Below are positions 5,253 to 33,779 of a stretch of DNA of 40,041 bases, one piece after another (the first letter of the stretch is position 1; each line of letters begins with the position of its first letter). Location: IMG/VR virus record IMGVR_UViG_2778261296_000006. The stretch is one strand, 5' to 3'. The translations under genes and the position numbers were made by a program. Below the pieces are notes generated by a model. It was not told the origin of the DNA, made no database searches, and saw only the letters and a list, made by a program, of their open reading frames with translations. This stretch comes from a virus. Its lineage: Duplodnaviria; Heunggongvirae; Uroviricota; Caudoviricetes.

Positions 5253-6317
5253 CTAATTCGTCGTCCCTTGCATTGCTTTCGGGCTATAAAGATCACGAGC
5301 GCCACGCGCAAAACACATCAAATCCATGTACCACGCCTGACCTCTGGTGTCGCCAGTATAGTCGATAGCTTTGACGATATAAACGCCATCCGTCGCAATG
5401 CTGGCAGCCTGTGACGTCGTGCCGGTCAGCACACGGTTGCCGTTCTCTTCTGTTTCGGTGATACGCCCGGGCGACTGTGCTATTTCGCTATTGCCGAGCG
5501 TGGCGCGGTACACCGAAGCCTGATCGAGCTGGATAAGACCATTAATGCGGATGTTTGGGTTTATCAGGCACCGCACGTTTACGCCGCCGCCCATTGTCTG
5601 TTGCGGCATACCGATCAGGCCAGTATTGGCATTCAACACAATGGCTTCGTGAATATATTTATCCTCCGGCACCATCTGGACCCGACCATCCACCAGTTGC
5701 CATGTCGCTTTGCACTGCGCAGCAATATTATCCATCACGTTGCGGCTGGATGAGTAAATCGCGCGGCCACGAGGAAACACGGTATCAGGAAAATCGCCGG
5801 TAATGCCCTGTGTCACGCCGAACGCGTTGAAATCCTGCATCGTCGCCCGGTGCAGATCCGCAACGGTATAGCCAGCGGCAAGCGTGGTGATGGTGGTCGC
5901 ATAGAGGAACGCTTCGTGATCACCAATGGCCTGAATCAACACCCAGGAATCCGTAATGTTGTCCTTCCCGGTGACGGTGAAGCGAATATCACCGTCAAAA
6001 ATCAGGCCGTAGTTCTGACCGTTCACCTGCCCTATCTGGTCTGGTGAAATCTCCCGGGACACACCAACCTGGCTCGCATCAACATCCGGCGCTATACCGT
6101 CATACCCGGCAATGATGCGAATTTTGGCAAACTCCTGCCCAAGTATCTTGTTCGTGGTATCGGTCGAAAGGTTGTAAATTTTCACGTTCGCCACGCGCGG
6201 CCAGCGTGTGTCTGCCCACTCGATCTGGAACGTGACCTTAAAGTTAGACAGGGAAACGCCCTGCCCGTTCTGGTCCAACAGTTGCAGCTCAAAATGGCGC
6301 ATCCAGTTAAGAGACAT
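5253..6317 (-). CDS. tail/baseplate hub-like protein (gpD-like position)
   Basis: 354-aa ORF between the tape-measure-proximal small genes and the spike. Positional inference. Confidence 0.4.
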   Translation of the reverse strand: MSLNWMRHFELQLLDQNGQGVSLSNFKVTFQIEWADTRWPRVANVKIYNLSTDTTNKILGQEFAKIRIIAGYDGIAPDVDASQVGVSREISPDQIGQVNGQNYGLIFDGDIRFTVTGKDNITDSWVLIQAIGDHEAFLYATTITTLAAGYTVADLHRATMQDFNAFGVTQGITGDFPDTVFPRGRAIYSSSRNVMDNIAAQCKATWQLVDGRVQMVPEDKYIHEAIVLNANTGLIGMPQQTMGGGVNVRCLINPNIRINGLIQLDQASVYRATLGNSEIAQSPGRITETEENGNRVLTGTTSQAASIATDGVYIVKAIDYTGDTRGQAWYMDLMCFARGARDLYSPKAMQGTTN

Positions 6318-31047: not shown

Positions 31048-31266
31048 TTACTTTGGTAAACCGTCACTTGGGTTTGGATAGAGATCAGGGCGCAGCTCGT
31101 GTGGAGTTACGCCGGTAGCCGCGTAGATTTGAAGGACCCGATCAGCAGGCACCACGCCCTGGTACCGGTTTTTCCAGCGGCTGACCGACATCGGCTTGAT
31201 GCCCAGCATGGTTGCGAGATTTGTTGCAGTGCCAGCGGACTTAATGGCTTTCGTTAACCCGTTCAT
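31048..31266 (-). CDS. Cro / YdaS-like HTH regulator
   Basis: Start at ATG 31266 with GGAGAC RBS. 72 aa, MNGLTKAIKSAGTATNLATMLGIKPMSVSRWKNR... is an HTH-type sequence. Divergent from the repressor gene across the operator region. Confidence 0.6.
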   Translation of the reverse strand: MNGLTKAIKSAGTATNLATMLGIKPMSVSRWKNRYQGVVPADRVLQIYAATGVTPHELRPDLYPNPSDGLPK

Positions 31267-31294
31267 CGTTGTCTCCGATTTGAATACAATCAAA

Positions 31295-31336
31295 TTAAGC
31301 CTGAGACTTAATTTATTGTCAAGCCTGAGGCGAATT
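31295..31336. promoter_or_regulatory. OR-like operator/promoter region (divergent PR/PRM)
   Basis: 17-mer TTAAGCCTGAGACTTAA at 31295-31311 and related GTCAAGCCTGAGG at 31318-31330. A TTGACA hexamer on the minus strand (31322-31317) overlaps the sites and points toward the cro-like gene. Confidence 0.5.
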
Positions 31337-31370: not shown

Positions 31371-31757
31371 ATGAAAGAGAAAACCGTACTTAATCCGATA
31401 CTTGTCGAACGCCTTTCAGAGCTGAACGGGCGCGGTATGACCAAATCCGATATGGCCAGGGTTGCTGGGGTAACCCCGCAGTCTGTGAACGGCTGGTTTA
31501 AAAAAGGCGTGATCAGCAAGAAATCAGCTCTCGCTGTCGCTGACGCAGCTGGCGTGTCTGTGCCTTGGTTACTCGGTGAGGATGTCGGCGAGAAGGACGG
31601 ACTTAAGCCGGACGAACAGCGCCTGCTTGAGCTCTACCGCCAGCTGCCAGAAGAAGAGCAACAGAACATGCTCCGCATCTTTTCGATACGTCTTAAGGAA
31701 CTGGATGAGCTGTATGAGAAGTACATGAAGGGGCGGATTCGCTCGCAGGGGGACTGA
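31371..31757 (+). CDS. cI-like prophage repressor (HTH; no S24 peptidase domain)
   Basis: 128 aa. N-terminal HTH (MTKSDMARVAGVTPQSVNGWFKKGVISKKSALAVADAAGVSVPWLLGED), then a short helical C-terminal region. Too short to carry a LexA-like autocleavage domain. Divergent from the cro-like gene. Confidence 0.6.
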   Translation: MKEKTVLNPILVERLSELNGRGMTKSDMARVAGVTPQSVNGWFKKGVISKKSALAVADAAGVSVPWLLGEDVGEKDGLKPDEQRLLELYRQLPEEEQQNMLRIFSIRLKELDELYEKYMKGRIRSQGD

Positions 31758-31842
31758 ATCGCTTTAGGTTTGTCCTGAATTTTTAGTTCCCATGAGACAA
31801 TGATGTCTTTACTGGGGGGTGATTCCGCCATTTATGTTAGAT

Positions 31843-31870
31843 TGAAAAAAACTATCAATTTAATTAATAT
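31843..31870 (+). promoter_or_regulatory. sigma70-like promoter of the immunity-region cargo gene
   Basis: TTGAAA (31843-31848), 16-bp spacer, TAATAT (31865-31870), about 28 nt upstream of the cargo ATG. Confidence 0.45.
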
Positions 31871-31898
31871 TTATCACTACTACACGGGATGTTTTGCA

Positions 31899-33203
31899 AT
31901 GACAGCTGAGATTGTTGTAATAAATAATACTGGAATCGCCCTTGCTGCTGACTCTGCAGTCACCACAGAGCATAATAGATTAGTAAAAATAAATAATAGT
32001 GCGGAAAAACTATTCGAACTATCTAAACACCATCCCGTGGGGATCATGATTTATAATAATGCGACACTGGGTGGCGCACCGTGGGAACTTATAATTAAAT
32101 CCTATAGAAAACAATTGGGGAAAACTAGTTTCCCTACCATTAAAGAATATGTTAATGACTTTGTAAAATTCATCAATGGTAACTCAGACCTTATAACAAA
32201 TGAAATGAGAGAGGCTTGCGTTATAAACCTTGTTGTTGATAACCTCAAAGGTTTGATGAGATACATTAATGATAATAATGTAGTAAACTATTTAACAATG
32301 AACCCCGCCGTTGAACTCGACAATGTTATTTTTCAAAACATAGTTAAGCAAGCCTTTGATTTAGAGATAGAAATCTTAAGGAATAATCTCTTTTTCGAAG
32401 GGTTTGATACAGAAGAGTTTAATGATGCTTTAGCATATATACAAGATTTAATATCGCCATACATTTCATCAATTATTGTTCTTGATAACTGTGAAAATAT
32501 ACAGCAAGAGCTTATGGAAAAAGTCATATTATATTCCACTTGTTTAATTTTCAAAGTCCATGCTAGTCGTACATATTCAGGGATTGTTATAACAGGTTAT
32601 GGAGAGGAAGAATATTACCCTTCCATTTGCACTCTTCATATCTACGGCATTTTTAAAAACAAATTGATGATCCATAATATTAATGATAAATCCCATAATA
32701 AGGTAACCAATATGGGGTTTGTTATACCATTTGCTCAAGAAGATGAAGTAGTAACTTTCATTGATGGGTGCAACCCTAACATCATTAATTTTAACAGAAC
32801 TCTTACAGAGGAAGTTTTTGATCGGCTTAATCATTATGTTTCTAGCAATATTTTCCCTGCAATGAACAATGGAGTACTAGCCAATCACTTCTCCAGTGAA
32901 ATTGAGGAACTCAAAAACGTACTTTTACAAGATCACGATACTAAACTTGAAAGCTATATTGTTAATAACCATACAAATAAAATGATATCGATGTTGCAAT
33001 CACTTGGGAAGGCAGATCTTGCGTATATGGCCGAATCATTAGTGAACATCACTGCATTCAAAAGAAAAGTATCACATGATTATGAAACTGTCGGTGGGCC
33101 TGTTGATGTCGCTGTGATATCAAAAGTTGATGGATTTGTTTGGGTAAATCGTAAACACTACTTCCCTAAAGAGCTAAACTCTAACTACTTTAATCGTCAA
33201 TAA
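31899..33203 (+). CDS. AT-rich cargo protein of unknown function; candidate defence protein with Ntn-hydrolase-like N-terminus
   Basis: 434-aa ORF (MTAEIVVINNTGIALAADSAVTT...), strongly AT-rich versus flanking genes. Lies between the repressor gene and OL/PL with its own promoter and terminator. Start chosen at ATG 31899 because the upstream in-frame extension overlaps the promoter. Confidence 0.5.
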   Translation: MTAEIVVINNTGIALAADSAVTTEHNRLVKINNSAEKLFELSKHHPVGIMIYNNATLGGAPWELIIKSYRKQLGKTSFPTIKEYVNDFVKFINGNSDLITNEMREACVINLVVDNLKGLMRYINDNNVVNYLTMNPAVELDNVIFQNIVKQAFDLEIEILRNNLFFEGFDTEEFNDALAYIQDLISPYISSIIVLDNCENIQQELMEKVILYSTCLIFKVHASRTYSGIVITGYGEEEYYPSICTLHIYGIFKNKLMIHNINDKSHNKVTNMGFVIPFAQEDEVVTFIDGCNPNIINFNRTLTEEVFDRLNHYVSSNIFPAMNNGVLANHFSSEIEELKNVLLQDHDTKLESYIVNNHTNKMISMLQSLGKADLAYMAESLVNITAFKRKVSHDYETVGGPVDVAVISKVDGFVWVNRKHYFPKELNSNYFNRQ

Positions 33204-33220
33204 CACATAAGGAGATATTA

Positions 33221-33325
33221 ATGTCTATAAAGCAAGCTCTCAATAACGCTTATAAAATCATTGTAAATCAAAAATTTGGTAATAAAGAACAGCAGCACTC
33301 GCCGAAAGGATTTAACCAGCAGTAA
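33221..33325 (+). CDS. small basic protein (34 aa) co-transcribed with the cargo gene
   Basis: ATG at 33221 with AAGGAG 6 nt upstream. MSIKQALNNAYKIIVNQKFGNKEQQHSPKGFNQQ. Stop immediately followed by a terminator. Not in the supplied ORF track. Confidence 0.3.
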   Translation: MSIKQALNNAYKIIVNQKFGNKEQQHSPKGFNQQ

Positions 33326-33327
33326 TG

Positions 33328-33357
33328 AAAAAACCCGGCCACAGCGCCGGGTTTTTT
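33328..33357. terminator. strong rho-independent terminator (bidirectional form)
   Basis: AAAAAACCCGGC-CACAGC-GCCGGGTTTTTT: perfect 6-bp GC stem extended by A/T pairs, T6 tail. Confidence 0.65.
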
Positions 33358-33403
33358 ACACCCTCACCCACCATCTCAGCCGCCAACACCCAGCCACGAA
33401 GTC

Positions 33404-33437
33404 CCCGATCTCGACCTTAGCGTCGGGATTTTTTTTG
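33404..33437 (+). terminator. second terminator-like hairpin with T8 tract
   Basis: CCCGATCTCGAC-CTTAGC-GTCGGG followed by ATTTTTTTT. Confidence 0.4.
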
Positions 33438-33461
33438 CCTGCAATTCGGTGAACATCACGA

Positions 33462-33527
33462 TTAAGCCTGAAACTTACAATCACATTTCGCCTGGAGCTT
33501 GACATGATTTAAGTCTCAGGCTTAATA
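33462..33527 (+). promoter_or_regulatory. OL/PL-like operator-promoter
   Basis: Operator-like 17-mers TTAAGCCTGAAACTTAC (33462-33478) and TTAAGTCTCAGGCTTAA (33509-33525, reverse complement of the OR 17-mer) bracket and overlap TTGACA (33499-33504), 17-bp spacer, TAATAT (33522-33527). Confidence 0.5.
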
Positions 33528-33779
33528 TGCAATCACCAAGACGCACCACGAACCACCCAGGCATGGAGCCCACGAAGTAGCCGTCCGGGGCATACGAAGA
33601 CCGGAATGAGGTGGTGAGATTAACGCGCAGTAGGTTTGAAACGTTCCGCCAGCCTGGCGACAAGGGCAAAGCACAGAGTGAGCTTCGCGGTGGTGAATTG
33701 CAGAGTTAAAACGCTCAACCGTGAAGATCAGCGCCGCGGCACCACCAGCGAAGTTCACTCAGAAAAACTGGAGAACATC

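Follow-up and report, generated by a model that had tools for sequence, protein, structure and literature searches.

The closest described relatives of the gene considered here are probably among the 22 new proteasome-homolog families reported by Fuchs, Alva and Lupas in 2021 (PMC8665760). In two of these, PMI-3 and PMI-4 (PMI standing for 'Proteasome homolog with Multiple Insertions'), long segments are inserted after the H1/H2 pair and again between H3 and H4, and insertions at both sites were predicted to interfere with ring stacking and could prevent ring assembly (PMC8665760). PMI-4 exceeds the other new families in size and diversity, with 501 sequences at nr90 and members in Proteobacteria, Firmicutes, Actinobacteria, Bacteroidetes, the Planctomycetes-Verrucomicrobia-Chlamydiae (PVC) group, Cyanobacteria, Euryarchaeota and phages; its function is unknown, and the authors report few clues to it and neither an informative gene neighbourhood nor a gene that co-occurs (PMC8665760). 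The window analysed here is a 40,041-nucleotide stretch of viral DNA (IMG/VR record IMGVR_UViG_2778261296_000006), a Rac/lambda-like prophage, which carries on its + strand a gene for a predicted proteasome homolog (31899–33203) followed by a small open reading frame (ORF). The explanation that we regard as the best overall, and as rather probable, is that this is a proteasome-superfamily protein in a two-gene conflict module that is expressed in the lysogen.

The window protein shares with PMI-4 a proteasome-like core with Thr1/Asp17/Lys33 and no propeptide, insertion sites after H1/H2 and between H3/H4 that match its own insertions at residues 101–218 and 293–368, and a large, diverse family with a broad distribution that includes phages. 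Because the distribution matches, the window protein is probably a PMI-4 member, the comparison having been made with the published description of that family. The departures are the small downstream ORF and the recurrent accessory slots in mobile elements, which are found here and not in the 2021 paper; the conserved partner ORF and the location in the slot of rexAB are new here.

With the 20S proteasome beta subunit (Thermoplasma, 1PMA) and Anbu the window protein shares an N-terminal Thr, an acidic residue 17, Lys33 within K-L-F/Y, and a strand of the form xGGxIDVAVIxKxDG. It differs from them in lacking a propeptide and a match to PF00227, in having ~200 extra helical residues in two insertions, and in that GSG(128–130) and S169 seem, by position, not to be conserved; moreover it has no alpha-subunit or AAA+ partner and is a solitary mobile-element gene with a small ORF. 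HslV (ClpQ) is likewise a bacterial T1 peptidase with a Thr N-terminus after Met removal, a state that is predicted for the window protein, and in E. coli it begins MTTIV. However, HslV is compact (~175 residues) and its gene accompanies that of its activator, the AAA+ protein HslU, activation requiring HslU or peptides from the HslU C-terminus, whereas no AAA+ partner gene is conserved near the homologs of the window protein among the 127 nearest ORFs.

A different kind of likeness is to RexA-RexB of phage lambda, which excludes superinfecting phages and is encoded in the order cI-rexA-rexB between the right and left operators (OR and OL). The window locus is also a two-gene unit between the repressor gene and OL and its promoter PL, on the repressor's strand, and by analogy expression in the lysogen would be expected. 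There is no sequence or fold relationship to RexA-RexB and no PADLOC match; of the lambda pair, RexB resides in the membrane and RexA acts as a sensor, whereas the window products are predicted to be a soluble Thr-peptidase homolog and a hydrophilic peptide of 34 residues. Connectases (the MJ0548 family) lack H1/H2, have a two-helix lid between S3 and S4 and are confined to methanogens (PMC8665760); the window protein differs in having H1/H2 equivalents (residues 62–94) and no insertion between its strands at residues 21–24 and 27–30.

Gene, start site and N-terminus

The features of the protease-homolog gene are as follows.

31899..33203, + strand: coding sequence of the protease homolog, a predicted proteasome-family T1 Thr-peptidase homolog (translation, homologs, model)
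31902-31904, + strand: predicted active-site codon, Thr2 (translation)
31950-31952, + strand: predicted active-site codon, Asp18 (translation)
31986-31988, + strand: conserved codon, Lys30 (translation)
32007-32009, + strand: predicted active-site codon, Lys37 (translation)
31842..31870, + strand: promoter-like site TTGAAA-17-TAATAT, 29 nt 5' of ATG 31899, a candidate for the module's own promoter (consensus scan only)

The translation of 434 residues reads MTAEIVVINNTGIALAADSAVTTEHNRLVKINNSAEKLFEL...VGIMIYNNATLGGAPWEL, with the stop codon at 33201-33203. The longest ORF, which is also the RefSeq/PGAP call in E. coli, starts 33 codons further 5' at 31800 and would encode 466–467 residues. We rejected this start, and with it a 33-residue 'propeptide', because conservation does not reach into the extension and that ATG stands 5' of the promoter-like site; homologs of all lineages begin M-T, and members of the same 90% cluster in Enterobacter hormaechei are annotated at 434 residues. 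Taken together, the non-conserved extension, the Enterobacter annotation and the position of the promoter-like site support ATG 31899 as the start. We note that annotation from ATG 31800 adds 33 non-conserved residues (window 31800-31898) and masks the N-terminal Thr in the E. coli records. The gene is AT-rich (31–36% GC, compared with 50–60% in the flanks), and this allele is carried by 13 of 5426 complete E. coli genomes.

A preliminary description of the window, made from the sequence alone, had pointed to an N-terminus of proteasome or HslV type, and the translation confirms the pattern that it read: Thr is residue 2, with Asp18 at +16 from it, Lys30 at +28 and Lys37 at +35. Judged at the sequence level, this pattern exceeds chance. 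As the residue after the initiator Met is always this Thr, the family has no propeptide, and methionine aminopeptidase, which in E. coli cleaves a Met preceding Thr, would be expected to free the Thr alpha-amino group. In T1 peptidases the Thr1 hydroxyl is the nucleophile.

Family size and conservation

A word-indexed search returned more than 6100 relatives. When HMMER was run exhaustively over 1.84 billion cluster representatives, 6054 clusters (50% identity) reached E<=1e-3, 3364 of them E<=1e-30; the best 150 HMMER clusters all have lengths of 417–457 residues and a match starting at residue 1. To read conservation, the window protein was aligned with 144 representatives, mostly less than 50% identical pairwise, of which about 140 begin M-T-[AST]-E-[IVL]. 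The putative active-site residues are close to invariant (T2 99%, D18 100%, K37 100%), as are K30 (99%), N9 and S19 (both 100%), and further conserved positions are G233/G235 (100%), A279/Q280 (99%), V398-G-G-P (95–99%) and, all at 100%, D403, V404, G412, W415, R418, K419 and Y421.

Members occur in at least 512 genomes from many bacterial phyla and archaea. The best 80 loci, from which the list of taxa was drawn, include Nitrospirota, Planctomycetota, Acidobacteriota, Cyanobacteria, one Paceibacterota (candidate phyla radiation) genome and several archaea; phage and satellite carriers include phages and satellites of Streptococcus and phages of Porphyromonas, Stenotrophomonas and Providencia, and there are plasmid carriers in Rhizobium and Enterococcus. 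The only match in PHROGs is phrog_5990, described as of 'unknown function'. Few protein families without any curated model are as large (~6000 clusters at 50% identity), and every member examined is annotated 'hypothetical', yet the proteasome-type triad is intact.

Proteasome-type fold and active site

The AF2 model of the window protein (pLDDT, the predicted local distance difference test, 86; pTM, the predicted template modelling score, 0.80) has a proteasome-type fold, the alpha-beta-beta-alpha sandwich, that is built from residues 1–94, 223–290 and 367–434 and interrupted by two helical insertions. The segments and motifs are as follows.

Residues 4-52: strands (AF2 model)
Residues 62-94: helices, H1/H2 equivalents (AF2 model)
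Residues 101-218: four-helix insertion, between H1/H2 and strand S5 (AF2 model)
Residues 227-277: strands (AF2 model)
Residues 281-289: short helix (AF2 model)
Residues 293-368: long helical hairpin, between H3 and H4 (AF2 model)
Residues 371-392: helix (AF2 model)
Residues 402-415: strands (AF2 model)
32181..32564, + strand: helical insertion 1, residues 95-222, four helices, hypervariable in sequence and constant in length (model, alignment)
32730..32747, + strand: acidic motif FAQEDE, residues 278-283, with A279/Q280 99% conserved (alignment)
32769..32996, + strand: helical insertion 2, residues 291-366, a long H3-H4 hairpin, hypervariable (model, alignment)
33090..33125, + strand: VGGPVDVAVISK, residues 398-409, predicted counterpart of the proteasome S169-G170-G171 loop and the next strand (profile alignments)

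This arrangement does not bear out one part of the preliminary description, in which an N-terminal N-terminal-nucleophile (Ntn) domain was followed by a C-terminal extension of roughly 250 residues; the fold spans the whole chain and is split by the insertions. The last helix of insertion 1 (residues 203–218) aligns with the end of proteasome helix H2. The insertions are nearly gap-free in the alignment and have a mean top-residue frequency of 0.27–0.31, compared with 0.7–0.9 in the core, and we infer a design of variable appendages on a constant effector, as is expected for molecular-conflict proteins.

Structural comparison places the window protein nearest to proteasome beta subunits and a designed Anbu, and further from HslV, which the preliminary description had named alongside the proteasome beta subunits and to which the sequence match is insignificant. 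The comparison scores are:

Proteasome beta: up to 12.4, with 165-187 residues aligned of ~200
Designed Anbu: 11.7
BPH: 9.6
HslV: 8.9
Connectase: 8.6

When the family profile is compared with profiles of archaeal beta subunits, three local matches emerge in collinear order. At the N-terminus, a weak alignment to the Thermoplasma beta subunit equates T2 with T1, D18 with E17, K30 with K29, and K37 with K33 in 'KLF', the context of K37 being 'EKLFEL' and that in Thermoplasma 'KKLFQI'. Residues 207–250 align to beta 85–125, comprising the end of H2 and strands S5/S6, with 'ViAGYG' opposite 'LLVGGxD' (hhalign E 1.6e-4), and residues 385–417 align to beta 160–188 (probability 77%, E 2e-5). The last of these includes the GGP-containing segment that the preliminary description had listed as a separate feature: TVGGPVDVAVI is indeed present, at residues 397–407, and it does not stand apart: 'SGGMIDVAVITRKDGYV' is the counterpart of the S169-G-G loop and strand of the proteasome ('VGGPVDVAVISKVDGFV'). 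The catalytic triad of proteasomes is Thr1, Asp17 and Lys33 (Fuchs et al. citing Huber et al. 2016; PMC8665760), and the predicted equivalents Thr2, D18 and K37 are invariant in the family. Because the three matches are collinear and the triad is intact, the assignment to the Ntn/proteasome group, as proposed in the preliminary description, is well supported, and from sequence and model together we consider it very likely indeed that the window protein is a T1-fold homolog with an intact triad.

Several observations weigh against this assignment or give it less help than might be expected. Searches with the window protein found no family in Pfam, NCBIfam or PADLOC (PADLOC-DB v2 and Pfam at E<=1), including PF00227, the Pfam Proteasome family whose accession is precomputed for archaeal beta subunits, and a phmmer search of PDB gave no match. 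The checks that accompanied the preliminary description came out in part: the family profile did find three proteasome chains in PDB, all at E>0.8 and together with one unrelated de novo design, one match aligning 'tVGGPiDVAviSKgdGfi' to 'ASGGMIDVAVITRKDGYV' of Thermoplasma beta at E~0.9, with no counterpart in Pfam; and a good AF2 model was obtained, for which the top and third Foldseek matches in BFVD are phage proteasome beta and HslV proteins, neither reaching E 0.001. The Foldseek matches are weak because the insertions disturb the alignment. Comparison by hhalign with single HslV or Thermoplasma beta sequences, or with a 16-sequence beta alignment, gave short local matches only, which are supporting evidence and not proof, and the links to proteasomes through sequence are weak if taken singly.

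The model and the secondary active-site positions also have unfavourable aspects. AF2 confidence is low at residues 21–40, a stretch that includes K30 and K37. In place of SGG the window protein has VGG, with V398 aligned to S169, although the GG and the next strand are conserved; no Asp is aligned with proteasome D166, and the Ser129/Asp166/Ser169 support network was not found. The FAQEDE motif seems to stand where proteasomes have G128-S129-G130, a placement made by strand order only, with no alignment covering the motif. At the Gly47 position of the oxyanion hole the window protein has Asn53, where the family consensus is Gly ('MVYG'); the backbone amide at residue 53 could still serve the oxyanion hole.

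A small partner ORF

Immediately downstream of the protease homolog are the following features.

33210..33214, + strand: Shine-Dalgarno sequence AGGAG, 6 nt 5' of ATG 33221 (read from sequence)
33221..33325, + strand: small partner ORF of 34 residues, MSIKQALNNAYKIIVNQKFGNKEQQHSPKGFNQQ, absent from the RefSeq annotation (conservation downstream of homologs)
33328..33358, + strand: predicted intrinsic terminator AAAAAACCCGGC-cacagc-GCCGGGTTTTTT, closing the two-gene unit (dG -18.9 kcal/mol, z -4.67, 0 of 200 shuffles as stable)

The same peptide of 34–35 residues follows the homologs in Klebsiella, Serratia, Rahnella and Citrobacter, with a shared core AYK[IV][IL]xxxKF[GS], and the large proteins at these loci are 70%, 49%, 46% and 46% identical, respectively, to that of the window. 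Four of the five short ORFs have a ribosome binding site of AGGAG type and the fifth, that of Citrobacter, has GGAG; a hairpin with a T-tract is visible after the short ORF in the window, Klebsiella and Serratia. Substitutions in the short ORF are most frequent at third codon positions, followed by first and then second positions (for example 4/0/9 and 5/2/9 at positions one to three).

The association extends well beyond the enterobacteria. Among 77 phylogenetically scattered loci from bacteria and archaea, 76 have a same-strand ORF of 30–90 residues that starts between -40 and +35 nt of the stop codon of the large gene, compared with 37% of control ORFs (Fisher p 2e-26). These partner ORFs have a median length of 63.5 residues, the commonest offset is -4 (an ATGA overlap), and they are often translationally coupled. 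In most lineages the partner has 50–80 residues, as opposed to 34 in the window, and most small partners have the motif [FY]xS[FM]xE[FWY]E[KR]x[YF][FL]P and, after it, an amphipathic helix. A hidden Markov model (HMM) of the partner recognises 38 of 11,896 small ORFs across the collected locus DNA, all of them directly 3' of the protease gene and four of them archaeal. A Pfam search of the small partner proteins found no family. A larger conserved neighbour, such as an AAA+ protein, regulator or toxin, was sought among the 127 nearest ORFs and none was found, with no family recurring more than three times; as the small ORF is the only conserved partner, the unit is therefore a self-contained two-gene cassette. 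We regard the small ORF with good confidence as a genuine conserved partner.

There are informative departures. In twelve Bacteroidota loci (L033, L038, L044, L052, L053, L056, L060, L069, L072-L074 and L091) the small ORF is of a distinct conserved type, …SNKDVLSAF[RK]Q…IQQGMS..EISE[IV]VSEKI..VVKEQFE…, which the HMM of the main type does not recognise. The sole locus of the 77 without an ORF of 30–90 residues is that of Vibrio sp. J1-1 (L035, downstream of position 5284), where loss, a shorter peptide or an unusual start are all possible. The partner ORF at 33221-33325 is absent from the preliminary description and is mentioned neither by RefSeq nor by the 2021 proteasome-homolog paper.

Position in the immunity region and in other elements

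The module lies within the immunity region of the window prophage, the other features of which are as follows.

31371..31757, + strand: repressor gene, helix-turn-helix, cI/RacR-like, directly 5' of the protease homolog and on the same strand (RefSeq: helix-turn-helix domain-containing protein)
31294..31329, no strand assigned: OR-type operators, comprising a 19-bp near-palindrome ATTAAGCCTGAGACTTAAT at 31294-31312 and a partial copy AAGCCTGAG at 31321 (shared words with the OL region)
33461..33528, no strand assigned: OL-type region with operator copies at 33461-33479 and 33509-33527 (inverted) (shared words, promoter scan)

On the - strand are replication O/P-like genes, a YdaT-like gene and a cro-like gene (31048-31266), and the order on the + strand is helix-turn-helix repressor, protease homolog, small ORF, a gap, ydaE, recE and recT, and then the integrase. 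The OR-type operators are between the divergent cro-like and repressor genes, and share an 18-nt word with 33509-33526 and an 11-nt word with 33461-33471. The OL copies overlap a strong promoter-like sequence, TTGACA-18-TAATAT (33499-33528), which faces the ydaE-recE-recT early-left operon. Because there are operator copies on both sides, the repressor gene, protease homolog, small ORF and terminator are placed between OR and OL. A second terminator-like hairpin with a T-run is present at 33407-33430 (+), between the module terminator and OL, and the rest of 33359-33460 has no obvious coding role.

The 70% identical Klebsiella homolog has the equivalent position, next to a repressor of another kind, the S24 type. 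Elsewhere the slots vary: in Enterobacter, Cronobacter, Serratia and Citrobacter prophages the homolog is between antiterminator Q and holin on the opposite strand, in a Providencia phage it is between Q/Dam and holin, and in Klebsiella prophages and a Stenotrophomonas phage it is between the lysis and ejection genes. It follows the tail genes in Pectobacterium and the primase in a P4-like element of Serratia, is at the end of streptococcal satellites, and is beside filamentous-phage genes in Vibrio. Other cassettes are in isolated chromosomal islets beside transposases, integrases and a Zeta toxin. The placement is typical of lysogenic-conversion and defence genes, and is circumstantial evidence for a function of that kind.

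Two loci have additional features. The E. coli TUM12355 locus (L001, 15162-28671) has the same immunity-recET-int segment joined to remnants of tail-fibre and baseplate genes, without the O/P-like replication genes of the window, and the cassette therefore survives in a decayed, mosaic prophage too. In Vibrio vulnificus (L006, 1-5300) the cassette adjoins filamentous-phage genes (Zot, DUF2523) and a PLD-like (PLDc_2) gene, and directly upstream of it is a 107-residue ORF that is also present in two further Vibrio contigs (L007 and L008).

Proposed role and alternatives

We propose that the cassette would be expressed in the lysogen and that the protease's conserved core would use the Thr to cut an amide bond, the target being a phage or host molecule or the protein's own partner. 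The variable helical insertions may gate access or choose the target, and the co-translated small protein could be the protease's inhibitor, its adaptor or its first substrate. The outcome would be superinfection exclusion or abortive infection, or killing or stabilisation of a toxin-antitoxin kind. A role in anti-phage exclusion or abortive infection is offered tentatively. Slightly more tentative is the specific proposal of a new anti-phage or abortive-infection class, in which a proteasome-family core would be the effector, the insertions a fast-evolving sensor or selector, and the small protein a brake, or a bait consumed on infection, the module having spread horizontally through bacteria and archaea and, in lambdoid prophages, occupying the rexAB slot.

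Some points count against a conflict role. Literature searches brought up no experiment on the family and no paper on it later than Fuchs et al. 2021, and nothing on a proteasome-like, Ntn or Thr-protease defence or toxin-antitoxin system. The 34-residue enterobacterial peptide does not align convincingly with the form of 50–80 residues. PADLOC defence-model matches among the non-prophage neighbours are few, and since they are scattered we make no claim of a 'defence island'.

The alternative that survives best, although we consider it unlikely, is an addiction module of toxin-antitoxin type, in which the free protease is toxic, the small protein is a labile inhibitor or is continuously consumed, and the pair stabilises a prophage, satellite or plasmid. 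The compact two-gene operon with translational coupling and the carriage on plasmids and satellites would be in keeping with this, as would a patchy distribution driven by horizontal transfer, with isolated islets beside transposases, integrases and the Zeta toxin and the allele in just 13 of 5426 complete E. coli genomes. However, the lysogen-expressed moron slots suit defence equally, and type II toxin-antitoxin systems less often place the large gene ahead of the small one; many toxin-antitoxin systems are in any case abortive-infection systems, so that this alternative overlaps with the conflict module that we favour.

An improbable alternative is a connectase-like or peptide-processing enzyme, in which the Thr would attack the small protein at a specific motif (for instance near [FY]xS[FM]xE[FW]E[KR]x[YF][FL]P) to give an acyl-enzyme, followed by cleavage or ligation that yields an active product. 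The small partner does have a strongly conserved linear motif, and insertions at both sites could prevent ring assembly (Fuchs et al., PMC8665760), but the defining features of connectases are absent, H1/H2 being present and the insertions elsewhere, and the 34-residue enterobacterial peptides are without the Pro-containing motif.

More improbable still is a lytic-cycle protease of benefit to the phage, or a catalytically dead scaffold, with no conflict between elements. Phage genomes do encode the protein, some of them isolated as free phages (Providencia, Stenotrophomonas), and several secondary proteasome active-site residues seem, by position, not to be conserved; yet the gene is often antisense to the flanking late operons, is in the window within the immunity region and not in an early or late lytic operon, and is found in satellites, plasmids and non-phage chromosomal sites of archaea and many bacterial phyla, while the invariant T2, D18 and K37 argue against a dead scaffold.

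If the module acts in defence or as a toxin-antitoxin system, it would be the first such system to use a proteasome-like threonine protease, and would be a simple model for the regulation of proteasome-fold enzymes by helical insertions and a small protein in place of an ATPase partner. The small partner and the recurrent lysogen-expressed slots turn the bioinformatic family of 2021 into a testable two-gene system.

Finally, the architecture of the preliminary description, a compact HslV-like N-terminal domain and then an unrelated C-terminal domain of ~250 residues, has next to no likelihood, for although the N-terminal 60 residues by themselves resemble the N-termini of HslV and proteasome subunits, proteasome residues 85–125 and 160–188 have counterparts by alignment in its middle and C-terminal segments.

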